A stretch of DNA of 64,000 nt from Rhodoferax sp. (GTDB taxonomy: Bacteria > Pseudomonadota > Gammaproteobacteria > Burkholderiales > Burkholderiaceae_C): positions 523 through 64,522 of the forward strand of contig NZ_JBDTEM010000147.1 in NCBI RefSeq assembly GCF_039922535.1. Direction: 5' to 3'. Position numbers and translations under genes: made by a program. Positions 18,096-37,085 of this stretch are shown in pieces (within the stretch, counting starts at the first letter, position 1; each line of letters starts with the position of its first letter). The notes under the pieces were generated by a model. The model did not search any database, had not been told where the DNA came from, and saw only the letters and a program-made list of their open reading frames with translations.

Positions 18096-18252
18096 GCAGT
18101 CCAGCGCACTGGCCAGGCCAAAAAAATTTGTACCAGATTTGCGCTTCGGGTACGCCCAAGGTACGAAGTTGCTGCTTCACGTCGCGCAGGAAGAGCTTAG
18201 GGCCTAAAAAGTAAGCATCCACATCTTTGGAGGCAGCCAGCCATCGGGCCAG
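18096..18252 (-). pseudogene. Decayed duplicate of the flavohaemoglobin (hmp) 3' end
   Basis: Translates LARWLAASKDVDAYFLGPKLFLRDVKQQLRTLGVPEAQIWYKFF[+1 T]GLASALD(TGC). This is 37/51 aa identical to the C-terminus encoded at 35904-36059, with a frameshift and TGA changed to TGC. Confidence 0.88.
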
Positions 18253-18262
18253 ATCTGCCGCG

Positions 18263-19204
18263 CTATGTCTCCAGCGAGTGCTCTACCAACATATCCACAC
18301 TGCCATCGTGCGCAAAGCCCAGGGCTTGGGCCAATGGCGTATGCAAGGGTGGGTAGGCGGCAAACAGGCGTTCAATCTGTGCATCCGGTGCATAGTGCAC
18401 CAACCCCCTGCGGTCGGCACCAAAGCGCGCGGCCAGTGCGTCCACCACCTCGGCCACGGCCAGGTGCAGCGCCGGCATTTGGTAGACGCGGCGCGCATCC
18501 AGCCGGGCCGGGTCTATGCAGGCGGCATGCAACAGGTTGTCCACGCAGGCACTCACGGAAATCCACCAGGCCTGGCCCGGGGCGGATACCGGCACCGTGA
18601 TGGACTGGCCGGCCCGCAGGCGCCAGAACAGCTGGCTCATGAAGGCCGACAACAGGCCTGCGCCCTCCCCTGGCCGCGCCACCACGCCGGGCACACGCAG
18701 CGAGCAGCCCTGCACCCAGCCCAGGCGGGTGGCATCGGCCACCAGGGCCTCGCCCATGAGCTTGTGGGTGCCGTAGCTCAGCGCGGGTGCGGGCTGTGTG
18801 GCTTCGTCCACCACCGCGGGCAAATTGGCGCCGTACACCGCCACGCTGCTGGCAAATACAAACCGGGGTGGCCGGGGTTGGGCACGCAGGTCTTCCAGCA
18901 GGCCCAGGGTCGCGTCCAGGTTGATGCTGCGGCCCAAGGCATAGTTTTTTTCCGCCAGCCCGCCGGGGCAACTGGCCAGATGGAACACCACGTCCACCGG
19001 GTCGGCGAATGCCTGGGCACGCAGGGCCGGGTCGGCAATGCTGCCCGCGAAATGGGTCACCCGGGCATCGCTGGGCGGCTGGGCAAACGCCAGGTCCATC
19101 AAGAGTAATTGGTCCACCGGCTGGCCTGCCAGGCCGTGTATCAACAGCTGCTGGACCAGCGCATGGCCCACAAAACCGGCGGCGCCGGTGACGACAATAC
19201 GCAT
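18263..19204 (-). CDS. NAD-dependent epimerase/dehydratase (FdeJ-like)
   Basis: VVTGAAGFVG, FHLAS, FASSVAVYG and SYGTHK (YxxxK). Confidence 0.88.
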   Translation of the reverse strand: MRIVVTGAAGFVGHALVQQLLIHGLAGQPVDQLLLMDLAFAQPPSDARVTHFAGSIADPALRAQAFADPVDVVFHLASCPGGLAEKNYALGRSINLDATLGLLEDLRAQPRPPRFVFASSVAVYGANLPAVVDEATQPAPALSYGTHKLMGEALVADATRLGWVQGCSLRVPGVVARPGEGAGLLSAFMSQLFWRLRAGQSITVPVSAPGQAWWISVSACVDNLLHAACIDPARLDARRVYQMPALHLAVAEVVDALAARFGADRRGLVHYAPDAQIERLFAAYPPLHTPLAQALGFAHDGSVDMLVEHSLET

Positions 19205-20202
19205 CAGCCGCCCCTGCCAGCGGCCAGCGGCACGACCTGCTGGTCGATGCTGCCGAACGGCCCGGCGCTGCCGTCTTCAAATAGCGCCTGCATGCGCACC
19301 CGCTCGCCGAAGCGCATGAAGGGCGTACTGGCCGCGCCCTGGTCAATCATCTCGATCACGCGGCGTTCCGCCAGGCAGGCCGAACCCGCAGAGCGCGCCG
19401 CGTTCGACACGGTGCCCGAACCCACGATACAGCCCGCCGTGAGCCGCCGGGTGCGCGCCGCATGGGCCACCAGCTCGCCAAAGCCGAAGCCCATCTCGCG
19501 GCCATGTGGTTCGCCGAACCGCTCGCCGTTGCGCTCCACTTTCAGATGCATGTGCACGCGGCCGTTGTGCCAGGCGGCACCAAGCTCGTCGGGCGTCACG
19601 GCCACGGGAGCGAAGGCGGTAGACGGCTTGGCCTGCAGAAAGCCGAAGCCGGTTTGCATCTCGTGCGGCCCCAGCGCGCGCAGGCTCCAGTCGTTGATCT
19701 GCACAACCAGGCGCACGGCGGCCAAGGCCTCAGCGGGCGTTGCGGCCATGGGCACGGGGCCGACGACCACGCCAAACTCGCCTTCGAAGTCGATGCCGTC
19801 GGCCTCGCTGGGCAGCGGCACGTCTGCATGCGGCCCCAGAAAATCATCGCTGGCACCCTGGTACATCACTGGCACGGTGTCGCCCTTGGGCATGGGCGGT
19901 GTGTTGAACGCGCGCTCCATCAGCTGCATATGGTTCAAAAAGGCCGAGCCGTCCAACCATTGCGGGCTGCGCGGCAAGGGCGCCAGGCACTGCTGTGGAT
20001 CGAAGACGAAGGCGTCGGCAGCCTGCCCGGTGTTGAGCGCATCGCTGCGCGCCTGCAGGGCCAGTGCGACGGTGTCCCAGCGCTGCAGGGCATCCAACAG
20101 GCTGGGGGCGATGTCGTGTGCGTCGCAGGCCAGGTGCTGGTCGTACGAGACGATGACGAGGCGGCCGTCGAGGTGGCCGTTGGCGAGTGTGGCGAATTTC
20201 AT
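19204..20202 (-). CDS. Fumarylacetoacetate hydrolase family protein (FdeI-like)
   Basis: WLDGSAF, MYQGASD, IDFEGEFGV, INDWSLR and QAKPSTAF. Confidence 0.92.
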   Translation of the reverse strand: MKFATLANGHLDGRLVIVSYDQHLACDAHDIAPSLLDALQRWDTVALALQARSDALNTGQAADAFVFDPQQCLAPLPRSPQWLDGSAFLNHMQLMERAFNTPPMPKGDTVPVMYQGASDDFLGPHADVPLPSEADGIDFEGEFGVVVGPVPMAATPAEALAAVRLVVQINDWSLRALGPHEMQTGFGFLQAKPSTAFAPVAVTPDELGAAWHNGRVHMHLKVERNGERFGEPHGREMGFGFGELVAHAARTRRLTAGCIVGSGTVSNAARSAGSACLAERRVIEMIDQGAASTPFMRFGERVRMQALFEDGSAGPFGSIDQQVVPLAAGRGG

Positions 20203-20213
20203 GGGTGTCCTGT

Positions 20214-21023
20214 TCAGCGGGGCAAGGCCATGAGGCCGTCGTCAAAAATCGCCACGGCCCGCGTCCAGCCAGCCGAGCCACGCCGCACCTTGTGCGGAAA
20301 GCAACTGATGAAGAAGCCGTGGCCGGGCAAGGCTTCCAGGTTGTGCAGTTTTTCCAGGTGGCAGTAGCCGATGTCGCGGCCCGCCTTGTGGCCTTCCCAG
20401 ATCAGCGCTTTGTTGCCGGTTTCGGCAATCTTTTTAGCGGTGTAGGAGAACGGAGCGTCCCAGCTCCAGGCGTCGGTACCGGTCAGACGCACACCTCGTT
20501 CCAGTAAATACATGGTGGCCTCGTAGCCCATGCCGCAACCGGCGGACACAAAGTCGTTGTGGCCATAGCGCGATCCGGCGCGGGTGTTGACCACCACAAT
20601 GTCCAGCGGCGCCAGCGTGTGGCCTATGCGCGCCAGCTCGGCCTCTACATCGGCTGCCGTCGCCACATAACCGTCTGGGAAGTGGCGGAAGTCGAGCTTC
20701 ACACCAGGCTGAAAGCACCACTCCAGCGGCACCTCATCGATGGTGATGGACGGTTTTTTCTCCCCGTTCTTGGCGTCCATGGTCGAATGGAAATGGTAGG
20801 GCGCGTCCAGGTGGGTGCCGCTGTGCGTGGTCATGGTCACCCACTCGGCGGCAGCGGCCTCGCCGTCCGGGTAGTCCTCCACCGTGGTGCCGGGAATCAT
20901 GGCCATGAACTCGGGCAAGGTGTCCTGGTGCTTCTGGTAAGTGATCTTAGGAGCCAAAGGTGGCGGGTCAGAGAGGACCTCGTTTTCCAGGAAGATCGAA
21001 AGGTCAATGAATTGGCGTGGCAT
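20214..21023 (-). CDS. Cyclase family metal-dependent hydrolase (kynurenine formamidase-like; FdeG-like)
   Basis: THSGTHLDAPYH (HxGTHxDAPxH), GTDAWSWD and HLEKLHNL. Start MPRQFIDLS at 21023. Confidence 0.92.
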   Translation of the reverse strand: MPRQFIDLSIFLENEVLSDPPPLAPKITYQKHQDTLPEFMAMIPGTTVEDYPDGEAAAAEWVTMTTHSGTHLDAPYHFHSTMDAKNGEKKPSITIDEVPLEWCFQPGVKLDFRHFPDGYVATAADVEAELARIGHTLAPLDIVVVNTRAGSRYGHNDFVSAGCGMGYEATMYLLERGVRLTGTDAWSWDAPFSYTAKKIAETGNKALIWEGHKAGRDIGYCHLEKLHNLEALPGHGFFISCFPHKVRRGSAGWTRAVAIFDDGLMALPR

Positions 21024-21034
21024 GTAGGGAATCC

Positions 21035-21826
21035 TCAATTTCCATCTGTTATCAAAGTGCCGCCGTCCACCACCAGGTTCTGCCCGGTGATGAAGGCACC
21101 GGCCGGGCTGGCCAGCATTACGGCTACGCCCGCCACCTCGTGGGGTTCGCCCACCCGGCGCAAGGGTGTAAGCGCCAGACGGCGCTGCATGAAGTCTGCG
21201 TTGCCCATCAAGCCGGTAGACAAAGGCGAGCGGATCAGGCCTGGCGATATGGCATTGACGCGGACCTGCTGTGGCCCCCACTCCACAGCCAGGTTGCGGG
21301 CCAGCTGTGCTAACGCAGCCTTGCTCAATCCGTACAAGCCGATAGAGGTGTTGCCGCGTAGACCGGCGATGCTGGACATCAGCACCACGCTGCCGCCGCC
21401 GCGATGGGCCATGCTGGGTATCACCCCCAGCGCCAAGCGCGCAGCGCCGCGCAGGTTGATGTCCCACACACGCTGCCAATCGGCATCACTGGCCTGCGCC
21501 AAGGGGCCAGCTGGCCCCTGCACACCCGCATTGCACACCAGTGCGTCAATGTGGCCGCGCCAGGCGCTGGCTTCGTGCACCAGCCGCGCTACCTGGGCCG
21601 CGTCCGCCATGTCGCAGCCCAGCGCCAGAGCCTCATGGCCCTGGGCTCGCAGCACGGCAACAGCCTCTTCGCAGGCCCCTGTCTGGATATCGGCCAACAC
21701 CACCGCTGCACCGTGGGCTGCCATGGCCTGTGCAATAGCCCAGCCCAGGCCTTGGGCGGCCCCGGTGACCAGGGCCACCTGGCCGGTCAGCCGGAACATT
21801 TCTGTAACGTGGGACAGGGCCACCAT
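21035..21826 (-). CDS. Short-chain dehydrogenase/reductase
   Basis: VTGAAQGLG, CNAG, SSIAG, YGLSK and RVNAISPG. Confidence 0.92.
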   Translation of the reverse strand: MVALSHVTEMFRLTGQVALVTGAAQGLGWAIAQAMAAHGAAVVLADIQTGACEEAVAVLRAQGHEALALGCDMADAAQVARLVHEASAWRGHIDALVCNAGVQGPAGPLAQASDADWQRVWDINLRGAARLALGVIPSMAHRGGGSVVLMSSIAGLRGNTSIGLYGLSKAALAQLARNLAVEWGPQQVRVNAISPGLIRSPLSTGLMGNADFMQRRLALTPLRRVGEPHEVAGVAVMLASPAGAFITGQNLVVDGGTLITDGN

Positions 21827-21827
21827 G

Positions 21828-22424
21828 TCAGTGACCCACCTCCGAGGCGCGGGCCTGCAGAGCCTCACGCAGCGCCGGCGTATAGGCTCCGTCCACCAGC
21901 ACAAAAAGCATGCGGCACATGCGGCCCGAGCGGTTGGCCCAGGCGTGGTTGGTGCCGCGTTGCACCACCACATCACCCTGGCGCAGCAGGGTGGCGCTGT
22001 CGTCCAGCACCAGGGTCATTTCGCCGTCTAGCACCACGCCGTAGTCCACCGACTCGGTGCGGTGCATCAGCGGATGCGGGGAATCGACGCGCACAGTGGA
22101 CGCACTGGCATCGCCAATCTGCGTGAAGGCGTCGTGCATCGCAGCGGCACCGTGGGCCAGGAAGTCTTCGGTATCGGGCGGGATGTCCACGACACGTATG
22201 CGGGTGCCCGCCTGCGGCGGTGGCAAGACCAGCGCGCCCAGGGTCGGGTCCGCGCCGTTGTCTATCTGTGCGGGCGTGCTCTGGGTGGACCATATCTCGT
22301 GGAACACGGTGCCCGGAATTTTCTCGATCGCCACCACCTTGGGCAGCAGACCGGCCTCGCTGACGATGGCTTTGCCTTGGGCGTCATGCCCGGTGACGAT
22401 GCGGCGGATGGGATGAAATGCCAT
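21828..22424 (-). CDS. Cupin domain protein (FdeH-like)
   Basis: IRRIVTGHDAQGKA, MHRTESVDYGVVLDGE and QRGTNHAWAN. Confidence 0.9.
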   Translation of the reverse strand: MAFHPIRRIVTGHDAQGKAIVSEAGLLPKVVAIEKIPGTVFHEIWSTQSTPAQIDNGADPTLGALVLPPPQAGTRIRVVDIPPDTEDFLAHGAAAMHDAFTQIGDASASTVRVDSPHPLMHRTESVDYGVVLDGEMTLVLDDSATLLRQGDVVVQRGTNHAWANRSGRMCRMLFVLVDGAYTPALREALQARASEVGH

Positions 22425-22438
22425 GCTGTTTGCCACCG

Positions 22439-23566
22439 TCAAATGGGCGCGGCCAGGGCCATCAGCGTCTCGCGCATGATGCGGCCGTGCTCGGCCTTGT
22501 CGCCACCAGTGATCTCGATCTCGCCCAGGCGCACGGAGTTCTCTACCACCATGCGGCAACGCTCCCAGCGCCGCACCTGGAAGCGCTCCAACGCCGACTG
22601 CAAGCCGCCGTCCGTATTCAGCTCGTCGGCCAACACGATCGCATCCTCGATGCCAATGCAGGCGCCAGACGCCATATGCGGCGTGGTGGCGTGGACCGTA
22701 TCGCCAATCAGCACAACCCGGTTTTGGTACCAGGGCTGGGGCATGAGCAGGCTTTCCAGCGGGCGGAAGACGATTTGCGCGTCTGCGTTGATCTGGGCTC
22801 GCACGCTTTGCATCAGCGGGGCGGAAAATGGCGCCAACAGGTCGGCCAGCATCTGCGGAAACCGCTGCGGGTCCACGCGGTCATTGTTCGCCCGGTCTTC
22901 GGTCACGAACAGGTACATCTCCTCTTGCGACACGGCGTTCACACCGGTCTTGACCTTGGGGCCCAGCCACATCATGGTGCGCTGCACCTCGGCAGGCCGG
23001 GGCAGCACCGCCCGCCACACGCACTGGCCGCTGTAGGCTGGCTGAGGGGCATCCGGGAACAAAGCCTTACGCACCTGGGAATACAGGCCATCGGCGCCTA
23101 TCACCAGGTCATAGCGCTGCTGGCTGCCATCGGTGAATTCCACGTCCACACCATCGGCATCCTGGCGCATAGAGGTGAAGCTGCAGCCCAGCCGCACCTG
23201 GGCACCCGATGCGCGGGTGGCATCGGCCAGTATCTTGGCCAGCACCGGCCGCATGATGCCGCCGCCGCCGGGCACGTCCGGCCCCGCGATGCGCGGCGTG
23301 GGCAGGCTGCCGATCTGATGGCCGGTAGGGGTGAACAAGTCCACCCCATCGGCTGCGAAGCCCTGGGCCAAAAACGCATCCAGCACGCCCAGCGTGCGAA
23401 AGGCGCGCAAGGTAGCGCCGCCCAGGCTGATGCCCGCGCCGTAGGAGCGCCAGCCCGAATCGATCTCAACCACATCCACCGCGCAGCCCTGCTTGCGCAA
23501 CTGTATGGCTGCCGCCATGCCCGAGAACCCCCCACCAATGATCAAAATCTTGTGTGCTGCTGTCAT
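22439..23566 (-). CDS. FAD-dependent monooxygenase (FdeE-like aromatic A-ring hydroxylase)
   Basis: IIGGGFSG, IGADGLYS and LIGDTVHATTPHMASGACIGIEDA. Confidence 0.9.
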   Translation of the reverse strand: MTAAHKILIIGGGFSGMAAAIQLRKQGCAVDVVEIDSGWRSYGAGISLGGATLRAFRTLGVLDAFLAQGFAADGVDLFTPTGHQIGSLPTPRIAGPDVPGGGGIMRPVLAKILADATRASGAQVRLGCSFTSMRQDADGVDVEFTDGSQQRYDLVIGADGLYSQVRKALFPDAPQPAYSGQCVWRAVLPRPAEVQRTMMWLGPKVKTGVNAVSQEEMYLFVTEDRANNDRVDPQRFPQMLADLLAPFSAPLMQSVRAQINADAQIVFRPLESLLMPQPWYQNRVVLIGDTVHATTPHMASGACIGIEDAIVLADELNTDGGLQSALERFQVRRWERCRMVVENSVRLGEIEITGGDKAEHGRIMRETLMALAAPI

Positions 23567-23640
23567 TCTTCTATCTCCGTTGTATCTGTTAAGACTTGCG
23601 CAGTGCCCGATTGGCGGGCCTGTCGCCCTTCTGTTGCCCT

Positions 23641-23991
23641 TCAGTCGGCCGCTGCGTAAGTCGTGTCTATCAATCTCACATAACCCTGGACGTCTATCGC
23701 GTGGGCAACGGCCTGCAGCGACTGGCCCAAACACGGCCCCAGCGTGCAGGCCCCGGTATCCACATCAAACAGCGCACCGTGGGCAAAGCACACGATGGCA
23801 TCGCCCGCGTGGTTCAGGTACGCATCCTTGCGCCAGGCCATGGGGCTGTTGGCGTGCGGGCAGTTGTCACGGTACACCCGCAGCCCATCACCACAGCGCA
23901 CCGCAAACAGTGTGTCCCGGCCCGCCTGCCCGGGGTCAAAGCCGCGCGACGTGCCCGGAGGCACATCGTCCAGATGGCACAGCAGCGTCAT
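23641..23991 (-). CDS. Rieske 2Fe-2S ferredoxin (FdeD-like)
   Basis: CPH...CFAHGALF...G.C..GPC. Confidence 0.9.
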   Translation of the reverse strand: MTLLCHLDDVPPGTSRGFDPGQAGRDTLFAVRCGDGLRVYRDNCPHANSPMAWRKDAYLNHAGDAIVCFAHGALFDVDTGACTLGPCLGQSLQAVAHAIDVQGYVRLIDTTYAAAD

Positions 23992-24003
23992 CAGACTGCG
24001 CCT

Positions 24004-24948
24004 TCAGCGCGCCGCACCGGGTGGTGGGCCACCGGATGGCGCCCACTTGTCGCGCTGCTGGAACAAGAATAGCTGCGACGCGTCCGCGCCCATGGGTGCC
24101 TCGCGGGCCAGCCATTCGGCGTCGTGCAGGTCCATGTCGGCGTCGTACTCCACATGGCAGCCCAGCGGGCTGTTGAAGTACCAAAACCAGTTGGAGCCAA
24201 AAAGATGGCGCCCCGGTCCCCAGAAGGACTGGTAACCCTTGTTGACGAAGCGGGTGCCGGCCAGCATCACCTCGGTAGGCCCGCCCATGTGGAAGGTGAA
24301 GTGCTCGCACCCCTTCATGAAAGGTGGCGTCTGGATCATGAACAGCGTGTGGTGGTCGGCCGTGCCGGCCGGGCGCAGAAACGGGCCCACACCGGTAAAG
24401 CGGTCGGTGCACACAAAGCCCAGGCGCTGGTAGAAGGCTTCGGCCTTGGCCGCGTCGGGCACGAAATACACCACGTGCGATAGGGAGCGCGGCAAGGCCT
24501 GCATGGCCGGCGTGACAGCCACCTGGTTGGCCGGACGCTGCGGCGCGGCGCCTGGTGCGTTGATGGTTTCAGCGGGCAGCTGGATAGACCGGCGCACAGT
24601 GAGCTGAAAGGCCAACGCAAAGCCCATGTCATCCACGGCCAGCACGCGGCCCTGGGCATCGCGGCGCACCTCGCGGTCGCGGCCCAGCTCGGCGGCAATT
24701 GCGTCCAGCGTCGCTGCGTCGGCCACGCCGTACACGGTCTCGCGCAGCATGCTGGCCGTGCCCATGGCAGGCGGCAGGCGGGGGTCGTCCTTATGGCGGA
24801 CTTCCACGGCCGTGCCGTCCAGCGCCTCGAAACGGCCACCTTCGGCGGTGACGCCCACCGGCGTCAGGCCGTAATCGGTCAGGTACTGGATACAGGCGGC
24901 CACGTCGTCCACGCCAAAGACCAGTGCATCGGGTCCAATAATGTTCAT
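24004..24948 (-). CDS. VOC-family extradiol ring-cleavage dioxygenase (FdeC-like)
   Basis: Two-domain VOC with metal ligands in LSHVV, DHHTLF/EHFTF, GPGRH and HVEYDAD. Confidence 0.85.
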   Translation of the reverse strand: MNIIGPDALVFGVDDVAACIQYLTDYGLTPVGVTAEGGRFEALDGTAVEVRHKDDPRLPPAMGTASMLRETVYGVADAATLDAIAAELGRDREVRRDAQGRVLAVDDMGFALAFQLTVRRSIQLPAETINAPGAAPQRPANQVAVTPAMQALPRSLSHVVYFVPDAAKAEAFYQRLGFVCTDRFTGVGPFLRPAGTADHHTLFMIQTPPFMKGCEHFTFHMGGPTEVMLAGTRFVNKGYQSFWGPGRHLFGSNWFWYFNSPLGCHVEYDADMDLHDAEWLAREAPMGADASQLFLFQQRDKWAPSGGPPPGAAR

Positions 24949-25004
24949 AGCTTGTTGCTCAGTTCAAAAGTAAGAAAAAGGTCGGCATGCCAGAGCGCGG
25001 TGCA

Positions 25005-25835
25005 TCAGCCCTGCCCGGCATACAGCACCGCTTCCGTCGCCAGCAGGCCAAAGTGGCCCGATGCGGTAGCCAGGCCCTTGGCCACCAGCGTGTCGCGCAC
25101 CCAGGTCTGCCATTGCGTCCACAGGCTACGGGCGGCGGCCTCGTCGTCCAGCCAGAATTCATCGATGCCATCCAGCGGGGCCGTCGTGCCGGGTTTGGCC
25201 ATGGCATCGTTTTGCACATAGCGGCGCAACTTGGCGGCTACAGGCCAGGCCTGCAGCGCGGCGGCGCCTTGCTGCCAGGCGGCGCGGAATGCTTCGGGAT
25301 CGGCATCCGGTGCGCGCTGGATGCAGAAGAACAGCTTGCAGGCGCCCGCCAGCGGGGCGCGCTGGGCGACCACCTCCCGCTCGCGCACGGTAAGCGGCAC
25401 CACCGTGCTCTGGTCCACAAAGTTGTCTTCATCGCCCTTCAGGTTCTGCAGGTAGAACGGCGTTTGCAACGAACGACCCAGCGCGCCAAAGTCCGGGAAC
25501 CAGATCTGGGTGACGAAATCGCGGTTCAACGCAAATGGGTCGCTGCCCGGTGCGGAGCTGCGGTACTGCCCGTCGAACACCGCGTTCTGCACATAACGGC
25601 GCGGGGCATTCTGCGGGTCGGTGGCGATGTAGCGCAACACCATTTCGCCATGCACATTGCGGATGTGCTGGCGGTGTTCCACCATGCTGGTGCCGGGTCG
25701 GCGGCGGCCCAAGATCATCAGCTTCAAATCAAACGGCCCCGGGACCTGCGGCGCCGACTGGGCATAGTCCGAGGGTGCCGCACCCAGCGCCAGGGAAGCC
25801 AGCAGCAGGTGCCGCCGGTGGATCATTGTGTTCAT
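25005..25835 (-). CDS. Tandem EthD-like (dimeric alpha/beta barrel) protein with possible Tat signal
   Basis: Two repeats of K-L..RxP...F/H...RRYVQN...; N-terminus MNTMIHRRHLLLASLALGAA. Confidence 0.7.
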   Translation of the reverse strand: MNTMIHRRHLLLASLALGAAPSDYAQSAPQVPGPFDLKLMILGRRRPGTSMVEHRQHIRNVHGEMVLRYIATDPQNAPRRYVQNAVFDGQYRSSAPGSDPFALNRDFVTQIWFPDFGALGRSLQTPFYLQNLKGDEDNFVDQSTVVPLTVREREVVAQRAPLAGACKLFFCIQRAPDADPEAFRAAWQQGAAALQAWPVAAKLRRYVQNDAMAKPGTTAPLDGIDEFWLDDEAAARSLWTQWQTWVRDTLVAKGLATASGHFGLLATEAVLYAGQG

Positions 25836-25840
25836 CTAAA

Positions 25841-27042: not shown

Positions 27043-27064
27043 AACTGCTTTCTCAGGGTAAAAA

Positions 27065-28252: not shown

Positions 28253-30639
28253 GCTGTTGTCTCCGTGGCGGCCGTCTGCGCGGCGGGTTTGAGTAGGAAG
28301 TGGGCCAACGCGGGCAGCAGGATCAATGCACCCAGCATGTTCCAGAGGAACATGAAGGCCAGCAGCAAACCCATGTCGGCCTGGAACTTGATAGGGCTGG
28401 CCACCCAGGTGATGACGCCAATCGCCAGCGTCACGCCGGTCAGCATCACCACCTTGCCGGTGAACAGCAGCGCCCGGTAATACGCCTGCGACAGGCTAGC
28501 CCCGGCACGCAGCTGCGCCAGGGTGACGCTGAGGATGTACAGCGCGTAATCCACGCCTATGCCCACACCTAGCGCAATCACCGGCAGCGTCGCCACCTTG
28601 ACGCCCATGCCGAAGGCCACCATCAGCGCCTCTGCCAAAAACGATGTCAGCACCAGTGGCAGCACCGCCACCACCACCGCGCGCCAGGAGCGGAAGGTAA
28701 TGAAGCACAGCAGCACCACCGCGCCATACACCATCAGCAGCATCTGGTGCCAGGCATGTTTGACGACGATATTGGTGGCCGCCTCGATACCGGCATTGCC
28801 CGCCGCCAGCAGAAACTGCACGTCCGCTGTGTCGTTTTCTTTGGCGAAGGCTTCCACATGCTCAACCACGCGGGTCAGGGTGTCGGCCTTGTGGTCGCGC
28901 AGGTAGACGTACAGCGTCAGCAGGCCGCAGCTGTCGTTGTACAGCCCACGCGGTGCGCCAGCGGTCACGGTGTTGAGCATGTCCTGGTTGTTCAGGAACT
29001 CGTACCACTTGGGGTTGCCCTCGCTCAGGCCCGTCAGCACGCGGCGGTTCAGCAGTGCCAGAGTGTTGGTGGACTCCACGCCGTCGAGCTGGCGCAGCTG
29101 CCACTCCAGCGCATCCACCTTGTTCAGCGTCTCGTACTGGGAGCACTGGCCTTCGGGCGTCTTGACCATCACGGCCAGCACGTCACTGCCCGCGCCATAG
29201 GCGCTGTTGATGAAGGCCACGTCGCGGTTGTAGCGGCTGTCGGCGCGCAGCTCGGGAGCGCCCGGGTCCAGGTCGCCAATCTTCAGCTGCGACGCCACCA
29301 GCGCACCGGCCACGCCCAGCAGCACGCCACCGGCCACGGCCGCTGTCGCCCAGCGGCGCTGGGTAAAGCGGTCCAGCCAGGCCCACAGCGGGCTGCGCGC
29401 CGCGCCGCTGGCATCGCCCGCCTCGGCCCGTAGGCTGCGCTGCGCGGCAGCGGGGCTGACGCCGGTGTAGCTGAGCAAAATCGGCAGCAGGATCAGGTTG
29501 GTGAAGATCAGCGCCGCCACGCCCAGGCTGGCCGCCAGGGCCAGCTCACGGATGGCCTGGATGTCGATCACCAGCAGCACCGCAAAGCCCACGGCATCGG
29601 CCAGCAGCGCCGTCAGCCCGGCCAAAAACAGGCGGCGAAAGGTAAAGCGTGCCGCCACCAGGCTGGGCATGCCACGGCCTATGTCCTGCATGATGCCGTT
29701 CATCTTCTGCGCGCCGTGGCTCATGCCGATGGCAAACACCAGGAACGGCACCAGGATGGAATACGGGTCGAGCTGCTGGCCCAGCAAGGGCAGCAGGCCC
29801 AGTTGCCACACCACCGCCACCATGGACGCCGCCACCACCAGCACGGTGGAACGCACACAGCGGGTGTAGGCAAACACCATCACGCTGGCAATCGCCACCG
29901 CCAGCGCAAAGAACACCAGCACCGCCTGCACGCCGTCGATCAGGTCGCCCACGATCTTGGCAAAGCCGGTGATGTGCACCGACACCCCTTGTGCGCTGTA
30001 CTTGGCACGCAGCAGCTCCAGGCGTTGCGACAATGCGCGGTAGTCCATCGCATTGCCCTGGGCATCGCGGGTCAGCAGCGGCACAAACAGCACGCTGGAG
30101 CGCCGGTCCAACGCCACGGTCTGGCCGATCTCGCCCGAGCGTTCGATATTCGCTGCCAGTTGCTGCAGGCTGGCTGCGCCGCCGTCGTAGCCCTCCGGGA
30201 TCACCGGGCCTCCTTCCAGCCCATCCTCGGTCACACCGACCCAGCGGGTCGATGGCGTCCAAAGCGACTTCATGCCCACGCGGTCCACGCCGGGTACCAG
30301 GAACACTTCGTCGCTGATCTTGCGCAGGGTCTCCAGATAGCTCGCGTCGTAAATACTGCCTTTGGGGTTGGCCACCGCAATGCGCAAAGCATTGCCCAGG
30401 CCGCGCAGCTCGCTTTGGTGCTGCAGGTAGTTCTGGATATAGGGATGGTGGCCGGGGATGGTCTTCTCGAAACTCGCATTCAAGTCCAGACGGGTCGCCT
30501 GCCAGCCCAGCAGCAGCGTGACCAGCGCGCAGATGCAGACCACCCACAGGCGGTGGTTGAACAGCAAGCGCTCCACCACCGAGCCAGATTGTGTATTGAA
30601 TGCCGCTGCTGGGGGCATGGGTGATGTTGCCGCCATCAT
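28249..30639 (-). CDS. RND/MMPL-family exporter-like protein (partner of DUF1302/DUF1329/YCF48)
   Basis: Two TM clusters, AIGMSHGAQKMNG and GIGVDYALY. Confidence 0.9.
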   Translation of the reverse strand: MMAATSPMPPAAAFNTQSGSVVERLLFNHRLWVVCICALVTLLLGWQATRLDLNASFEKTIPGHHPYIQNYLQHQSELRGLGNALRIAVANPKGSIYDASYLETLRKISDEVFLVPGVDRVGMKSLWTPSTRWVGVTEDGLEGGPVIPEGYDGGAASLQQLAANIERSGEIGQTVALDRRSSVLFVPLLTRDAQGNAMDYRALSQRLELLRAKYSAQGVSVHITGFAKIVGDLIDGVQAVLVFFALAVAIASVMVFAYTRCVRSTVLVVAASMVAVVWQLGLLPLLGQQLDPYSILVPFLVFAIGMSHGAQKMNGIMQDIGRGMPSLVAARFTFRRLFLAGLTALLADAVGFAVLLVIDIQAIRELALAASLGVAALIFTNLILLPILLSYTGVSPAAAQRSLRAEAGDASGAARSPLWAWLDRFTQRRWATAAVAGGVLLGVAGALVASQLKIGDLDPGAPELRADSRYNRDVAFINSAYGAGSDVLAVMVKTPEGQCSQYETLNKVDALEWQLRQLDGVESTNTLALLNRRVLTGLSEGNPKWYEFLNNQDMLNTVTAGAPRGLYNDSCGLLTLYVYLRDHKADTLTRVVEHVEAFAKENDTADVQFLLAAGNAGIEAATNIVVKHAWHQMLLMVYGAVVLLCFITFRSWRAVVVAVLPLVLTSFLAEALMVAFGMGVKVATLPVIALGVGIGVDYALYILSVTLAQLRAGASLSQAYYRALLFTGKVVMLTGVTLAIGVITWVASPIKFQADMGLLLAFMFLWNMLGALILLPALAHFLLKPAAQTAATETTA

Positions 30640-31709
30640 GGTGCCGTCCCCAATGGCACGGCGATCGCACCGCGTACCGTCAGCGCCAGCAGCCGTCCAT
30701 CGGTCAACGGCAAAACGCCAGCGGGCGAAGGCAGCGCTGCGCCAGGCAGCAAGCTCAGAGTACCGTCACGCAGGGCAAACAACTGCCCGCCCTGGTTGGC
30801 CAGCACAGCCCCCTGCCCCGCGCGCAATGCCGACGCGGTGAATGAAATCGGCGCAGCCGCCGCAATGGCCAACCAGGTGGTGCCTGCATCGGTGGAGCGC
30901 CATGCATTACCGCGCAGACCGGCCAGCACGATCTCGCCATGGGCGGGCAGTTCGGCCGTAAAAAAGCTGCCCTGGTAGGGCGTGGTCAGCCGGGTGAAGT
31001 GTTGGCCAGCGTCTTGCGATTGCAGCACCAGACCCTGCTCGCCAGCGATCACCACGGTGTTGCCCTGGGCGCGCACGGTGTACAGGTGCAAGGCCTTGGG
31101 GTTGTCCAGATGCTGGCCCCAGGGCTTCCAGCTGTGGCCGCCGTCTTCGGTCATGAATGCCAGGTTGTACGCACCCACCACGATACCGTGCTGGGCGTCA
31201 AAGAAATGCAGGTCCAGCAAAGGCTTGTCGGCACCGTCGGCCACCAGGCGCTGGGCGTTCTTCACCGCGGCGGCGTCACCGCGGGCCTGGGCCTCGTCCA
31301 ACACCAACTGGGCAGCGGCCTTGCCTTCCAGTTGGCGCACCCAGGTCTCGCCACCGTCCACCGTGGCCAGCACCACGCCGCTGTGGCCCGTGGCCCAGCC
31401 ATGCTGGGCATCCACAAAGCGCACGGCGGTCAGCGTCACGCTGGTGGGCACCTGGGCCTGGCGCCAGTGGGCCGCCGCATCGTCTGACAGCAGCACAATG
31501 CCGCGCTCGCCTACCGCTACCACACGCGACCCTGCCAGGGCCGCGCCCAACAACACCGCCTGGGCGGCTTGCGGGCTGACCAAGGCAGGGCGGTCCAGCG
31601 CACTACCCACTGGTGCAGCCCATGCTGCGGGCAGTGCCAGCGCAGCGGCGCACACCAGCAGGGCACGCAGTCGGCCCGTTTCCGGTGGCTTCAAGGAAAT
31701 CAGAAGCAT
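30636..31709 (-). CDS. YCF48-related beta-propeller (BNR repeat) protein
   Basis: VGERGIVLLSDD, TVDGGETW, TEDGGHSW and STDAGTTW Asp-box repeats. Confidence 0.9.
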   Translation of the reverse strand: MLLISLKPPETGRLRALLVCAAALALPAAWAAPVGSALDRPALVSPQAAQAVLLGAALAGSRVVAVGERGIVLLSDDAAAHWRQAQVPTSVTLTAVRFVDAQHGWATGHSGVVLATVDGGETWVRQLEGKAAAQLVLDEAQARGDAAAVKNAQRLVADGADKPLLDLHFFDAQHGIVVGAYNLAFMTEDGGHSWKPWGQHLDNPKALHLYTVRAQGNTVVIAGEQGLVLQSQDAGQHFTRLTTPYQGSFFTAELPAHGEIVLAGLRGNAWRSTDAGTTWLAIAAAAPISFTASALRAGQGAVLANQGGQLFALRDGTLSLLPGAALPSPAGVLPLTDGRLLALTVRGAIAVPLGTAP

Positions 31710-31722
31710 GTTGTCCTACGCC

Positions 31723-33087
31723 TCAGCGAACGCTGTCGCCAGCCATGGCATCGGGCGAGAAAGTGGAGTCGGCGTAGCGTGGCTGCAGCGTGTATTGCGC
31801 CGACTTGCTGTTGTACAGGTCACCCACATAGGCGGTGCCCGACAGCAGGTCGTTGAAGCCGAAAGCTCCGGTTACCGTGCCTGGCAGATCGGGCGCCACA
31901 AAGGTGGCGGTCCAGATGGACTTCCAGAGCTGGCCGTTGGAATCCCAGCGGTCGGCCAGCACACAGGCCCAGGTGTCTTCGTCGCAGTAATAGCGGCTCT
32001 TGGCGGCAGGGTGGCGTTGACCGGCCCGCAGGCTGGCATTCACCACCCAGACCCGGTGCAGCTCCCAGCGCATGAAGTCGGGATTCACGCCGTTCTTGCC
32101 CAATACCTCGGCATCGGTCTTGGCTTGTAGCAGGCGGTTGCCGTTGTAGGGGATGAACATCTCCTTCTTGCCTGCCAGCTTGAAGTCGAAGCGGTCCAGC
32201 TTGCCGGACCAGGTCTGCACCTCGTCAAAGCTCATCAGCCCGGCGGTCACTGGCGACGGCGTATCGCAGCAAGGGTTGGGCAGCTTGCGCACACGGCGCT
32301 GGCCGGTCAGGTAGACCCAGGACTGGGTCTTGGCCGGGTCGATCTGGTCGCGGCCGGTGATGGCTTCGCCCGCGCGTATCGGAGGGCCCACGTTGACCAG
32401 GCGGATCAGTTGGGTCTCGGGTGCCTTGGCAAAAGACTCCAGCGTGACGTCGGGGTAGTAGTACGGAATCTGGAAGTCGATGACGCCGTCGGTGGTCATC
32501 ACCGGCTTGCCGTCTGCCGTGATCTGGTACTGGGTGACCTTGGACTGGAAGGAAGTACCGCGCCAGCGCAGCATGTGGTTCCATATCACTTCGGCGCCCA
32601 CTTTGGGCAGGGGGAAAGGAATACCGCCCACCACATCGATCGGCACATCGCCCTGCAGCTTGCCACGGGTAGCGTTTTTCTGCGTGTTGTCGTAAACCCA
32701 CTGCGGCGCGGCGGCGGTGCGGTGCGTCTTGTACACATCTACCCGGTAGTCGGGGTATTTCTTCAGCAAAGCCATCACGCCGTCGCTGAGCTTGTCGGCG
32801 TATTGGTCGGCGTTCTTGCCGGTGATGCTGGTCAGCGGCTTTTCGTCCTTGAACGGGTCGCCGCGGCGGCCGCCGGCGTTGTCGCCAGCAATCGCGGTGG
32901 TCAGGCCGCCGGTCCAGGTGGGAATGCTGCCGTCTTTGTTGGCGGCTTTTTCAGCACCCAGCGGTGTCAGCTCGGTCTTCAGTTTCGCGGCCTCTTCCGC
33001 GCTGACGGCGGCCCAGCTTGGCAGGCTGGTGGCAGCGCCCATCAGCAGCCCGCAGGCCGCCAGCAGGGTATGGTGGTTTTTTTTCAT
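31723..33087 (-). CDS. DUF1329 periplasmic protein
   Basis: AVSAEEAAKLKTELTPLGAEKA, YKTHRTAA, GQRRVRKLP and WELHRVWVV. Confidence 0.92.
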   Translation of the reverse strand: MKKNHHTLLAACGLLMGAATSLPSWAAVSAEEAAKLKTELTPLGAEKAANKDGSIPTWTGGLTTAIAGDNAGGRRGDPFKDEKPLTSITGKNADQYADKLSDGVMALLKKYPDYRVDVYKTHRTAAAPQWVYDNTQKNATRGKLQGDVPIDVVGGIPFPLPKVGAEVIWNHMLRWRGTSFQSKVTQYQITADGKPVMTTDGVIDFQIPYYYPDVTLESFAKAPETQLIRLVNVGPPIRAGEAITGRDQIDPAKTQSWVYLTGQRRVRKLPNPCCDTPSPVTAGLMSFDEVQTWSGKLDRFDFKLAGKKEMFIPYNGNRLLQAKTDAEVLGKNGVNPDFMRWELHRVWVVNASLRAGQRHPAAKSRYYCDEDTWACVLADRWDSNGQLWKSIWTATFVAPDLPGTVTGAFGFNDLLSGTAYVGDLYNSKSAQYTLQPRYADSTFSPDAMAGDSVR

Positions 33088-33130
33088 GGTGTCTCCGGTA
33101 ATTCCAAATGGGTAGGGGTTAGCGGGGGGG

Positions 33131-34843
33131 TCAGAACGTGCGACGCAGGTTCAATGAGATGAAGTTGCGGTCGCCCAGCGGGTTGCCGTCGCTGAACTGC
33201 CCTGTGCTGTAGTCGTTAAAGGGCTTGCTGGTGCCGATGTAGCGGGTGTAGTTCAGCCCGAATTGCCAGGTATTGCGGAAGTTGCCTTCAATGCCAATGT
33301 TGGCGCTGCCCGTGCCCTTTGGGCCCCAGGCGGTGACGCTGGAACGACCCGACAGGGTGTAGCGCAGGCCCACAGGCACGTTGATGTCCACACCGTCAAA
33401 CACCTGCCGGTAGGTCGGGGTGTAGACAAACTGCACGATGCTGGCGTCGCGGGTGCGGCCCTGGTCGATCTCGTTGTCCGGGTCGTTTTTATGCAGCACG
33501 CGGTTCCAGGCCAGCTCGGCCGCCAGGCCGCTTTCCTTGGCCAAGAAGTTCGGGCCAAAGCTGGCAATGGTGGACAGGTTGATGTGCGCGGTGCGTCCAG
33601 TCGGATACGCCGGCCGGGCCGTACCATTGGGGCCGAAATACACAGCGTTGTTCACATTCAGCGGCATGTTGTCGCGCAGCGAGGCTTCGGCGGACACATT
33701 GAAGTCACCCACCGAACGCGACACGCTGGCGCCTGCCACATCGATGTCGCTGCCGAATACATAGAACCAGCTGCTGTCCGTAGCGGGTGCACCGGGGTTC
33801 AGCCGGGAATAGAGCTGGCCAGTCTTATCGTGGTAACGCGCGTAGTAAAAACCCAGGTCGGTCTCGTCCAACCGCCATTTCGCCTGCAGGCCAAATTGGC
33901 CGCTGTTGCGTGGCTTGTCGTCTGCGCCTGGCTGGGCCACATAGTTGCCACCAATGCCGGGAATGGATGCCGGAATGCCGACAAACTCCGGCCCGGTAGC
34001 CCCCCAAGGCACATTGGCGGTGGAGAAATAGCTGCCGGCTGCAGGCACACGACTCTCCTTCCACTGGAATTGCACATAGCCCCCCAGGCTGAAGTTGGGC
34101 GCCACCTGCCACTGGCCCGACAGCTGCGGCACCGGAATGGCGATTTCCTTGAACTGCGCGTTCGGTGACGACAGCAGCTTGGACACGTCCGTCGGCCCCT
34201 GCGCAGCGGCAATGCCGTTGTCGCCAAAGAACAGGCTTTCGCCGTACAGCAAGCTGTGCTGGCCCAGCCGACCGCTGAGCTTGCCACCGTTGGCCAAGGT
34301 GGTGCTGCCAAACACGAATGCATCCATCAGCTCTGCCTTGCGGCCCGACTCCTCCTGGGTGTGGTCGGCGAACTGGTTGTAGGGTGACTGGCCGTTGGTC
34401 GGGTCGTTGGGCGCATCGGTGCCGCGCTGGTAGGCCCGGTCGTACCAGCCAGCGGCGCTGATCCGCAGGCCAAACCGGCCTTGGTACACCGCATCGAACT
34501 CGGACAACAGATCCAGCCGCTCCGACACAAAACCGCGCTGGCTGAAGTTCTGGTCGCCCGCATTGAAGTTGATGGCCTGCGGCGCACCCTGGGCGCTGAA
34601 AGACTGTGTCAGCGCCGGGTCCGCATTGCGCAGCCGGTACATGGTGCTGGCCTTGACCGTGTTGTCGAAGCGCAGGCTCAGGTCCGGGTTGCCGCTGTCC
34701 AGCTCCATGGACTGGGCGCCTTGCACGGCCCCCAGCGCCGCGCAGGCCATGGCGGTACGCGTCATCAGCTGAACGCGGGAATAAGGGGAATAGGGGCGCG
34801 GAGCCCGGGCGGACGGGGTCCGCTTCCATAAACGTGGGTGCAT
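33131..34843 (-). CDS. DUF1302 outer-membrane beta-barrel uptake channel (FdeA-like)
   Basis: LSLRFDNTVK, NAGDQNF, WGESLFF-like LYGESLFF and C-terminal ISLNLRRTF. GGAGA RBS before ATG 34843. Confidence 0.9.
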   Translation of the reverse strand: MHPRLWKRTPSARAPRPYSPYSRVQLMTRTAMACAALGAVQGAQSMELDSGNPDLSLRFDNTVKASTMYRLRNADPALTQSFSAQGAPQAINFNAGDQNFSQRGFVSERLDLLSEFDAVYQGRFGLRISAAGWYDRAYQRGTDAPNDPTNGQSPYNQFADHTQEESGRKAELMDAFVFGSTTLANGGKLSGRLGQHSLLYGESLFFGDNGIAAAQGPTDVSKLLSSPNAQFKEIAIPVPQLSGQWQVAPNFSLGGYVQFQWKESRVPAAGSYFSTANVPWGATGPEFVGIPASIPGIGGNYVAQPGADDKPRNSGQFGLQAKWRLDETDLGFYYARYHDKTGQLYSRLNPGAPATDSSWFYVFGSDIDVAGASVSRSVGDFNVSAEASLRDNMPLNVNNAVYFGPNGTARPAYPTGRTAHINLSTIASFGPNFLAKESGLAAELAWNRVLHKNDPDNEIDQGRTRDASIVQFVYTPTYRQVFDGVDINVPVGLRYTLSGRSSVTAWGPKGTGSANIGIEGNFRNTWQFGLNYTRYIGTSKPFNDYSTGQFSDGNPLGDRNFISLNLRRTF

Positions 34844-34976: not shown

Positions 34977-34994
34977 CCAAGGGTTACCCCGAGC

Positions 34995-35903
34995 ATGCGA
35001 TTCAACAAACTCGACCTCAACCTGCTGGTGGCGCTGAACGCCTTGCTGACCGAGCGCAACATCAGCCGCGCGGCTGTGCGCGTGCACCTCAGCCAGCCCG
35101 CCATGAGCAATGCGCTGGCACGCCTGCGGGCTTATTTCGAAGATGAATTGCTGGTGCCATCGGGGCGCCAACTGATCTGGACACCGCGCGCCGAAGCGCT
35201 GGTGGAGCCAGTGCGCGAAGTGCTGATGCGCATCGACAGCACGATTGCCGTGCAGCCCCGCTTTGACCCAGCCACCGCCTCGCGGGCCTTCACCCTGCTG
35301 GTGTCCGACTTCACCACCACGGTCTTCGTACCCGCCCTGCTGGAGCGGCTGTACCACGAGGCGCCGGGCGTACGCATAGACCTGCGCATGCAGTACACCA
35401 ACCCCGCCGAAATTCTGGAACAAGGCGATGCCGACCTGCTGATCATTCCCGCCCAGTACGCCTCACCCGACCACCCGTCACAGCCGCTGTTTGAAGAAAA
35501 CTATATGTGCGTCACCTGGACCGGCAATCGGCATATCCAGGACAGACTGAGCTTTGAGGACTACCTGGCTGCAGGCCATGTGCTGGCCAATTTTTCCGGC
35601 GCTGCGCAGACACCGGCATTCGACGGCTGGTTTCTGGAACGCTTTGGCATCACCCGCCGGGTCGAAGTCACGGCCCCGACCCTGGCCGCCCTACCCAGCC
35701 TGGTCGTGGGCACCGACCGCATCGCCACCGTGCACCGCCGGCTGGCCGAGCGGGTGCGCCACCTGTTGCCCATCCGCATCTGGGAGCCGCCGCTGGAAAT
35801 CCCCAAGCTGGTCCAGATGCTGCAATGGCACAAATACCGCAACAACGACTTGGCCCTAGCCTGGCTGCGCAACTGCGCGCTCGAAGTGGGCGCGCAAATC
35901 TAG
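34995..35903 (+). CDS. NodD/FdeR-like LysR-family transcriptional regulator
   Basis: MRFNKLDLNLLVALNALLTERNISRAA...LSQPAMSNALARLR; divergent from the operon across a nod-box-like site. Confidence 0.92.
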   Translation: MRFNKLDLNLLVALNALLTERNISRAAVRVHLSQPAMSNALARLRAYFEDELLVPSGRQLIWTPRAEALVEPVREVLMRIDSTIAVQPRFDPATASRAFTLLVSDFTTTVFVPALLERLYHEAPGVRIDLRMQYTNPAEILEQGDADLLIIPAQYASPDHPSQPLFEENYMCVTWTGNRHIQDRLSFEDYLAAGHVLANFSGAAQTPAFDGWFLERFGITRRVEVTAPTLAALPSLVVGTDRIATVHRRLAERVRHLLPIRIWEPPLEIPKLVQMLQWHKYRNNDLALAWLRNCALEVGAQI

Positions 35904-37085
35904 TCAGTCCAGCGATGCCGCTGGGCCGAAGAATTCATAGCGGGTTTGCGCCTCGGGCACGCCCAATGCGCGCAACTGCTTTTTCACCTGGCGCATAAAG
36001 GGCTTGGGGCCCAAAAAATACGCGTCCACATCGCGCGAGGCGGGCAGCCACTGGGCCAACTGTTGCGGCTCCAGGTGGCCCACGGCATGCGGTGCGTCTT
36101 CAGAACCGCTGTGCTCGTCATAGGCATAAAAGCGCTGCAACTGCGGGTGCTTGGCCAGGCGCGCCTCGATGGCGTGGCGGAAGGCATGCACATGGCGATT
36201 GCGCGCACAGTGGATGAAGTGCACCGGCCGTGTGCCCTGCAGCGCCGCGTCCAACATCGCCAACGTGGGCGTGATGCCAACGCCGCCGCTGATCAGCACC
36301 ACGGGGCGCTCACCGGCCGCCAGCACGAATTCGCCTGCGGGCGGAAACAGCTCCAGCACATCGCCAACCTGTACCTGGTCATGCAGATGGTTCGACGCCA
36401 GGCCGCCAGCCTCGCGCTTGACGCTGATGCGGTAGTCCACACCATTGGGGGCGGCCGACAGCGAGTAGTTGCGGCGAATCTCCTGGCCGTTCACCATAAG
36501 GCGCAGGCCGATGTACTGGCCCGGCACAAATTCGGCCAGCGCGCCGCCGTCTTGCGGCTGTAGGTAGAACGAGGTGATTTCGCTGCTCTCGACCTCTTTG
36601 CGGGCCACGCGGAAGGCCCGCGCACCGCGCCAGCCGCCCGGGGCGGCAGCGGTATCGGCATAGATTTTTTCTTCGGCCCCGATCAGGATGTCGGCCAACT
36701 GGCCATAGGCCGCGCCCCATGCAGCGATGACTGTATCGGTAGCGATCTCGGCGCCCAGCACTTCGCGGATGGCGCGTAGCAGGCAGGCGCCGACCACGGG
36801 GTAGTGTTCGGGCTGGATCTGCAGCGACACATGCTTCTGGATGATCTGCGTCACCAGGCCGCCCAGCTGCTCCAGCTTATCGATATGCCGGGCGTACATC
36901 AGCACACCATTCGCCAGCGCGCGCGGCTGGTCACCGCTGGCTTGGTTCGCCTGGTTGAAAAACGGCCGTACCTCGGGGTGTTCGGCCAGCAGGATTTTGT
37001 AGAAATGCGTGGTCAGCGCCTCGCCGCCGCTCTCCAGCAGGGGCACGGTGGATTTGACGATGGCGCGTTGTTCAGGGGTCAGCAT
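35904..37085 (-). CDS. hmp: Flavohaemoglobin (NO dioxygenase)
   Basis: Globin domain (FNQANQ, IIQKHVSL, HYPVVG), FAD domain RRNYSLS and NAD domain LISGGVGITP. Confidence 0.96.
   Translation of the reverse strand: MLTPEQRAIVKSTVPLLESGGEALTTHFYKILLAEHPEVRPFFNQANQASGDQPRALANGVLMYARHIDKLEQLGGLVTQIIQKHVSLQIQPEHYPVVGACLLRAIREVLGAEIATDTVIAAWGAAYGQLADILIGAEEKIYADTAAAPGGWRGARAFRVARKEVESSEITSFYLQPQDGGALAEFVPGQYIGLRLMVNGQEIRRNYSLSAAPNGVDYRISVKREAGGLASNHLHDQVQVGDVLELFPPAGEFVLAAGERPVVLISGGVGITPTLAMLDAALQGTRPVHFIHCARNRHVHAFRHAIEARLAKHPQLQRFYAYDEHSGSEDAPHAVGHLEPQQLAQWLPASRDVDAYFLGPKPFMRQVKKQLRALGVPEAQTRYEFFGPAASLD

Follow-up and report, generated by a model that had tools for sequence, protein, structure and literature searches.

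The question raised by this locus is how a cluster of catabolic genes came to lie between two copies of the 3' end of a single chromosomal gene. The locus is part of a 64,000-nucleotide (nt) stretch of DNA from Rhodoferax sp. (RefSeq assembly GCF_039922535.1, contig NZ_JBDTEM010000147.1, positions 523 to 64,522), called the window in the following, and the gene is hmp. Closest to the Hmp locus of the window are those of R. ferrireducens and of uncultured Albidiferax metagenome-assembled genomes (MAGs), which points to a Rhodoferax/Albidiferax-like betaproteobacterium. Along the minus strand, norR (divergent) and hmp are followed by a cluster of 17.6 kb, whose first gene encodes a LysR-family regulator and is convergent with hmp, and then by a remnant of hmp, ndh and an MCP gene. 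A segment made up of the 3' part of hmp and the island was probably acquired from a relative, by a homologous crossover within hmp at one end and an illegitimate joint at a short GC-rich microhomology around codon 341 at the other.

Recurrence of the hmp tail

The intact hmp gene (35904..37085, minus strand) encodes 393 amino acids (aa) with the Pfam domains Globin, FAD_binding_6 and NAD_binding_1. When hmp was compared with the whole window, nt 1028-1181 of the gene matched positions 18251-18097 with 72.3% identity over 155 nt (blastn, E 1.1e-17), and residues 343-388 matched the same copy with 34 of 46 positions identical (tblastn, E 4.8e-17). This copy of the tail has the orientation of hmp and is the sole secondary match of the gene in the window, the next best ones being at chance level (E at least 0.018 for nucleotides and at least 1.1 for protein). 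An extra T near its end causes a +1 frameshift and a 1-nt deletion abolishes the stop codon; the longest exact run common to the intact tail and the copy is 10 nt. Homology to the hmp genes of the relatives termed clade A below extends back to position 18258, about 5 nt from the stop codon of the epimerase gene (18263-18265). At the other border of the island, the stop codon of the LysR gene adjoins that of hmp (35904) with a gap of zero. Both borders had been described in an initial annotation made from the window alone: its figures for the recurring tail (37 of 51 aa identical, one frameshift, stop codon lost, start some 10 bp behind the final gene of the island) hold in all essentials, and the direct contact of the two stop codons was confirmed at 35903/35904. 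A general repeat scan of the window missed the hmp repeat owing to the low identity of its two copies (72%) and the indels between them; palindromes resembling repetitive extragenic palindromic (REP) sequences were returned instead.

Empty sites in related genomes and origin of the remnant

For comparison, a set of 80 Hmp loci from species-representative genomes was used. Clade A comprises L004, L005, L008 and L010 and is joined by the window in norR, ndh and the MCP gene (93-96% aa and 88-91.5% nt identity), while L001, L002 and L003 form clade B. The norR gene (37199..38785, plus strand; GAF, sigma-54 activator and HTH_8 domains in Pfam), which is divergent from hmp, belongs to the clade A backbone: the whole gene as well as its nt 1-600 group with clade A at 100% bootstrap, and 60 informative sites support A against 13 for B. 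The ndh gene (16661..17992, minus strand; type II NADH dehydrogenase-like, Pyr_redox_2 in Pfam) is 96% (aa) and 91.5% (nt) identical to that of L004 versus 91% and 87% to those of clade B (L001: 87% nt); its clade was assigned by distance, as both splits are trivially present in a topology test on seven taxa without an outgroup.

An empty site, norR-hmp-ndh-MCP with nothing between, was present at 5 of the 80 loci (L001, L004, L005, L008 and L010), and an occupied one, norR-hmp-LysR-DUF1302 and onwards, at a single locus (L003). On either side of the island, the sequence of the window is colinear with L004, which lacks the island. Positions 3510-11182 of L004 correspond to 43562-35904 of the window and positions 11021-17164 to 18258-12099, and both tail copies of the window map to one 162-bp stretch of L004, the end of its hmp. 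Because both flanks are colinear with L004 and overlap on the same 162 bp, the ancestral order is hmp-ndh, with ndh as the downstream neighbor of hmp. This order had been proposed in the initial annotation, and the empty sites of the five relatives bear it out. Relative to it, the window has gained 17.6 kb of DNA and a second copy of the hmp tail. A separate rearrangement downstream of hmp was seen within the genus in the clade B MAG L002, where hmp is followed by an MCP gene and ndh is missing (7613-8096).

The second tail copy is a pseudogene fragment (18097..18258, minus strand) that runs from about codon 339/343 to the end of hmp and was delimited by blastn, tblastn and colinearity with L004 11021-11328. 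Its identity is 81% to the tail of L004, 68-70% to the tails of clade B and 72% to the intact tail of the window. In neighbor-joining (NJ) trees it clusters with clade A in 95.5% of the bootstraps, and six informative sites place it with A against one with B. Downstream of it, a spacer of 104 nt (17993..18096, minus strand) precedes ndh. This native spacer is colinear with that of L004 at 88% identity and has no counterpart in clade B, where the spacer measures 38-45 nt. Remnant, spacer and start of ndh align with L004 as a single block (85%), and likewise with L010 and L008. The share of first- and second-position changes is raised in the remnant, which is also less similar to L004 (81%) than its flanks are (88-91%). 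Given its clade A affinity, the clade B affinity of the intact tail and the colinearity with L004, the remnant is the stranded native tail in its original place next to ndh, and the tail of the functional hmp is foreign. This agrees with the initial annotation, in which the old tail was taken to be stranded and the two tails were ascribed to different lineages.

Mosaic structure of the intact hmp

Separate trees, which had been suggested as a check, assign the parts of the intact gene to different sources. NJ bootstrap values are 71% for nt 1-400 with clade B, 89% for nt 401-800 with clade A, 100% for nt 801-1027 with clade B and 88% for nt 1028-1182 with clade B. Of the informative sites, 17 support B and 2 support A in nt 801-1027, followed by 8 for B and none for A; the site counts of nt 401-800 and nt 801-1027 differ (Fisher's test, p = 0.004). 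Identity in nt 801-1027 is 82-85% to clade B versus 73-75% to clade A. Informative sites of clade A last form a run at nt 778, 779 and 784, those in support of B start at nt 829 in the 3' tract, and the same switch is found in the metagenome contig L153. Hence, the gene consists of a 5' part of two thirds (36302..37085, minus strand), an interval of nt 785-828 which contains the homologous crossover (36258..36301, minus strand) and a donor-type, clade B-like 3' tract of about nt 829-1182, contiguous with the island (35904..36257, minus strand).

The 5' part is itself heterogeneous, with nt 401-800 of the resident type and nt 1-400 (36686-37085) B-like; in nt 1-399, four-fold-site identity is 81% to L003 versus 72% to L004. 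This first stretch is either a second patch from the donor or the result of a separate event. Within the otherwise clade A-like norR, patches nearer to clade B were observed in the 3' part (38100-38450). Taken together, these B-like patches suggest that norR and hmp were subject either to exchange on repeated occasions or to an import in patches. A B-like backbone with an imported A-type flank was ruled out, as A-type sequence spans at least 6-8 kb on both sides.

The foreign hmp tract exceeds the repeat by about 200-240 nt, and only its last 155-161 nt or so have a counterpart in the remnant. This bears on the mechanism favored in the initial annotation, a Campbell-type integration of a circle via the 3' end of hmp. 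Since the foreign tract begins at nt ~785-829, upstream of the repeat, a single crossover within a 155-bp attachment (att) site cannot give the hmp gene of the window, and this part of the annotation is not supported, although the native stranded tail, the foreign new tail and the hmp-ndh ancestry were recognized correctly in it.

The mosaic must also be weighed against the view that the island already lay at hmp-ndh before clades A and B split and has since been lost repeatedly, with remnant and mosaic arising from later exchanges between island-bearing and island-free relatives. In agreement with such a history, identity at synonymous sites between the islands of the window and L003 (64-81%) is about equal to that between core genes of the two clades (70-78%), and nucleotide identity between the window and L003 is uniform at about 87% from norR through the island; four-fold-site identities are noisy and near saturation, so that they neither date the island relative to core genes nor delimit sub-tracts within it. 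The price is at least three precise losses (in L001, in L002 and in the group of L004, L005, L008 and L010), and an illegitimate event that put a clade A hmp tail behind the epimerase gene would still be needed. Moreover, the hmp 3' tract groups with B while the backbone on both sides is A. We therefore regard an ancestral island as unlikely.

Occupied sites in other lineages

Elsewhere, the island is found between hmp and ndh without any remnant, namely in L003 (L149 is a further part of the same contig, and the Logan contig L150 is identical) and in a third lineage, L160. In L149/L150 and L160, only 40-45 nt separate the stop codon of the epimerase gene from the start of ndh. The LysR protein of the window is 98% identical (aa) to that of L003, and the junction of hmp stop and LysR stop is common to both, which is in line with the earlier proposal that new tail and island were brought in jointly. 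The zero-gap junction also occurs in L153 and L161. The sole difference at this junction in L003 (6815-6840, versus 35895-35915 of the window) is an 11-nt tandem duplication (TCAGACTTCGT TCAGATTTCGG) that parts the two stop codons.

Because both borders are common to the window and L003/L149/L160, the block of hmp 3' end and island pre-existed in the donor lineage. This speaks against two unrelated steps, in which a foreign allele overwrote resident hmp and left the remnant, and the island was later inserted between the new hmp and the remnant. Replacement of the hmp allele is plausible by itself, given the several recombination patches in the 3' part of norR and in hmp nt 1-400. Yet the hmp-tail/LysR junction and the bases after the epimerase stop codon are those of L003/L149/L160, and a second insertion would have had to hit exactly both borders, which makes this sequence of events very unlikely.

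The contig L153, whose lineage is represented by ENA ERZ19034607, is 95.6% identical to the window and has the same left junction as well as the same hmp mosaic. Because of this, and because the remnant is more diverged than its flanks, the insertion event is, on sequence grounds, old and inherited. A metagenome scan with the epimerase returned 66 loci, none of them above 76% aa identity; it revealed a wide distribution of the catabolic operon but added no occupied site at hmp-ndh.

In other Comamonadaceae (L151, L154 and L156), unrelated genes adjoin the cluster at its LysR or its epimerase end, and no hmp fragment is present there. The picture of an integrative element with the 3' end of hmp as its attachment site, in which a circle carrying a tail of about 155 nt integrates site-specifically and replaces the resident tail, has in its favor that the island lies between direct repeats of the 3' end of a gene while the target gene stays intact, the classical arrangement for islands at tRNA genes and other gene ends. 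Several of its defining features are contradicted. The island has neither an integrase nor another mobility gene, the foreign tract reaches about 200-240 nt beyond the repeat, and the repeat itself is 72% identical with no more than 10 identical bases in a row and no identical att core. The island lies at hmp-ndh without a repeat in L149/L150 and L160 and at other loci without hmp fragments in L151, L154 and L156. Finally, no joints that skip the island were found in four metagenome runs, as judged from assembled contigs, which drop rare variants. Site-specific integration is thus extremely unlikely. Owing to the length of the foreign tract, the longest match of 10 nt, the repeat-free islands and the unrelated loci, hmp is a stretch of homology for recombination and not a specific attachment site; the unusual attachment site postulated in the initial annotation is contradicted by the same repeat-free and displaced islands.

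The joint behind the epimerase gene

The putative illegitimate joint (18253..18265, minus strand) consists of the epimerase stop codon with about 6-9 donor-type nt (TAG CGCGGC), after which resident hmp follows (...GCAGATCTGGCCCG). Behind the epimerase stop codon, L149 reads TAGCTCGGCGGGG and L160 reads TAGCGAGGCGGGG; at this position, hmp of clade A reads AGCAGTGCGGACCTGG or CGCAGCGCCGACCTGG. In a direct comparison at the joint, the donor type is TAGCGNGGCGGGG (L149, L160), clade A hmp is AGCGCCGAC or AGTGCGGAC and the window is TAGCGCGGCAGATCTGG. The first 6-9 nt past the stop codon (TAGCGNGGC) are common to the window and L003/L149/L160, and then clade A hmp begins at about codon 341. From these sequences, a GC-rich overlap of about 6-8 nt at the joint is possible, its length being approximate without the true parents. 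Of the resident hmp, only nt ~1022-1182 survive, and nt ~830-1021 are found nowhere in the window.

As a rival to the one-sided event, a linear donor fragment could have been circularized and integrated by a single RecA crossover in hmp, again Campbell-type, with duplication of the segment from nt ~800 onwards and later trimming of the remnant to about 160 nt. In E. coli, linear DNA has been documented to circularize and then integrate by one crossover (PMC3240628), and this course would also yield a chimeric intact hmp together with a native-type remnant, provided that the crossover was near the 5' end of the homology. However, at least one extra event is required, a deletion with its left end 6-9 nt past the epimerase stop codon, and there is no trace of remnant nt ~800-1021. 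Being less parsimonious than a single one-sided event, circularization is considered improbable.

Proposed recombination event

In the favored one-sided recombination, the recipient would have been a member of the Rhodoferax/Albidiferax lineage with the clade A backbone norR-hmp-ndh-MCP. The donor would have been a clade B-like relative which already held the cluster from LysR to epimerase between hmp and ndh, as in L003/L149 and L160. Its fragment would have extended from within hmp, or from further upstream, to a few bases beyond the epimerase stop codon. The left part of the fragment would have paired with resident hmp, and a crossover would have been resolved at nt ~785-829. The right end, without homology, would have been joined illegitimately at a short GC-rich microhomology to resident hmp at nt ~1022 (codon ~341). 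Thereby, resident nt ~830-1021 would have been lost, with the tail (nt ~1022-1182), spacer and ndh left in place. The product would be a complete but chimeric hmp ending in donor sequence, then 17.6 kb of newly gained genes and finally a dead resident tail. Of this account, the empty site of the relatives, the native remnant, a foreign 3' tract longer than the repeat, islands without remnant in other lineages and the lack of mobility genes are directly seen, and we infer the single event, the microhomology at the joint, the dependence on RecA and the route by which the DNA entered the cell.

Several observations weigh against this explanation. The microhomology at the joint is only approximate, because the actual donor and the recipient before insertion are unsampled. 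Four-fold sites of the hmp 3' tract are about equally far from clades A and B (66-71%, n about 55), so its affinity to clade B rests mainly on replacement sites, and the donor was related only deeply to the B genomes in the sample. A later, separate homologous exchange is a conceivable source of the B-like tract upstream of the repeat. Since hmp nt 1-400 and parts of norR are B-like too, either a patchy single import or several exchanges took place. Furthermore, the cargo is much larger than in experiments on this type of recombination, 17.6 kb compared to about 1 kb on average.

Comparison with known systems

[quoted passage not shown] Its marks are one homologous and one illegitimate end, 3-10 bp of microhomology, coupled insertion and deletion, and RecA dependence; inserts obtained in the laboratory average about 1 kb (PMC3240628). 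In the window, the switch of hmp from A to B between nt 784 and 829 corresponds to the homologous anchor, with the B tract contiguous with the island. At the other end, non-homologous sequences meet, apparently in a short microhomology rich in GC. About 190-240 nt of recipient hmp DNA were lost along with the insertion, and no element-encoded recombinase is present. In contrast to the experiments, the event in the window was not observed but is deduced from comparative genomics. Also, the donor supplied the 3' end of the anchor gene, so that the gene stays intact and the remnant of the resident tail mimics a target duplication.

A related footprint is left by C-terminal displacement, reported for Rhs genes (Jackson et al. 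2009, as referred to in PMC5361080). In Vibrio cholerae, type VI secretion system (T6SS) effector-immunity modules are displaced, orphaned 3' ends lie downstream, and HFIR has been proposed as the mechanism (PMC5361080). As in those cases, the 3' end of a gene gives way to that of an incoming segment which has the conserved 5' part in common with it and delivers cargo, and an orphan tail lies downstream in the window. The gene concerned here is, however, a housekeeping gene for the NO (nitric oxide)-detoxifying flavohaemoglobin and the cargo is catabolic and transport-related, with no polymorphic toxin or immunity gene. There is a single orphan instead of an array, and nothing points to selection for a diversified 3' end.

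With integrase-mediated islands (Campbell model), the locus shares the direct repeat of a gene's 3' end around the island and an element-borne end that keeps the gene intact. It differs by the lack of an integrase or conserved core and by foreign sequence beyond the repeat. In addition, the cluster lacks the repeat where it occurs elsewhere, and in other genomes it sits at unrelated loci. A repeat of a gene's 3' end around an island, taken alone, therefore does not imply a site-specific mobile element, because one-sided homologous recombination looks identical; the two were told apart here by how far the foreign tract extends in the target gene and by how the island occurs elsewhere.

The window is a further example of a known recombination footprint and represents neither a new kind of element nor a new attachment site. 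It shows in nature, and fairly cleanly, a mechanism for which most knowledge comes from transformation in the laboratory, with a far larger cargo and with the anchor gene kept functional. As a tentative generalization, hmp may have served as the homology anchor by which an integrase-less catabolic island of 17.6 kb was passed between Rhodoferax species through one-sided recombination. In that case, events of the HFIR type would be relevant to the spread of catabolic islands among Comamonadaceae of soil and rhizosphere, and orphaned gene tails beside islands could be used as a genome-wide marker of such events.

Gene content of the island

The first island gene encodes the LysR-family regulator (34995..35903, plus strand) and is divergent from the DUF1302 gene. 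All other island genes are on the minus strand; domains were assigned with Pfam. The transport half (28249..34843), for which gene calls on contig L161 were used in addition, contains in the order of transcription DUF1302 (33131-34843), DUF1329 (31723-33087), BNR/Ycf48-like (30636-31709) and MMPL/RND (28249-30639). The longest open reading frame (ORF) of DUF1302 (33131-35110, 659 aa) overlaps the start of LysR. Gene calls on identical contigs start at 34843 (570 aa), and with this start a divergent promoter region of 151 nt lies between DUF1302 and LysR. According to the description of Castellaniella AmeABCD in PMC6394551, DUF1302 and DUF1329 proteins are paired with an RND transporter there, and by this analogy the transport half resembles an AmeABCD-like four-gene module.

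For the catabolic half (18263..28243), gene calls on the identical contig L081 and NCBIfam were used as well. In the same direction, it comprises an MFS transporter (27065-28243), an S9/FrsA-like hydrolase (25885-27042), EthD (25005-25835), an extradiol-dioxygenase-like protein (24004-24948), a Rieske protein (23641-23991), an FAD monooxygenase (22439-23566), a cupin (21828-22424), an SDR (21035-21826), a cyclase family protein (20214-21023), an FAA-hydrolase family protein (19204-20202) and the epimerase/dehydrogenase (18263-19204), behind which the hmp remnant, ndh and the MCP gene follow. By function, the cargo consists of two parts, the AmeABCD-like module with the MFS transporter, and an operon of oxygenases, hydrolases and dehydrogenases under the LysR regulator. 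The gene order of the operon recurs in many metagenome contigs from soil and rhizosphere. Except for generic families, NCBIfam matches of the island proteins are below the curated cut-offs.

No integrase or other mobility gene was found among the 16 tightly packed island genes, all of which have catabolic, transport or LysR domains in Pfam; here the initial annotation, which had described an island without integrase, was correct. No tRNA or tmRNA genes were found, there is no shift of the GC content at the island, and the search for terminal inverted repeats gave weak, chance-like matches (70-90% complementary), none of which convincingly pairs the island ends. The cluster is an integrase-less gene cluster and not a mobile element, for which the label "catabolic island" is reasonable.

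The content of the island varies between lineages. L149 has a SnoaL_2 gene in place of EthD and an extra TctC gene (1438-1941 and 6363-7355 of L149). In L151, an MCP gene is inserted between SDR and cyclase (6370-8091 of L151). The SDR protein of L149 is only 67% identical to that of the window, and that of L151 is 92% identical.

Assembly support and sequence variation

In the Logan assemblies of four independent rhizosphere metagenome runs, contigs extend across 17500-29710 and 29695-37300 and cover both junctions. Word depth is even across the locus, with about 17x, 15x and 12x in three runs. An assembly chimera was ruled out, as both junctions are spanned by independent metagenome contigs at even depth.

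The source rhizosphere metagenomes show a few fixed single nucleotide polymorphisms (SNPs) relative to the window. Sites of strain polymorphism are 24406, 29974, 33320 and 35251, and three of the four runs have a 9-nt in-frame deletion in the MFS gene (window 27502).

The REP-like palindromic intergenic repeat families have a core such as GCTGCCTGCGCAGG...CTGCGCCAGCGGC, with AT-rich ATAGC motifs at the flanks. Copies are located at 341-409, 7664-7732, 14659-14727, 25848-25897, 39296-39364, 43588-43643, 46226-46281, 51564-51613, 61176-61224 and 62906-62954. One of these copies is within the island, between EthD and the S9 hydrolase, and exactly there the contigs of several metagenome runs break or diverge, with loose ends at 25849-25855.

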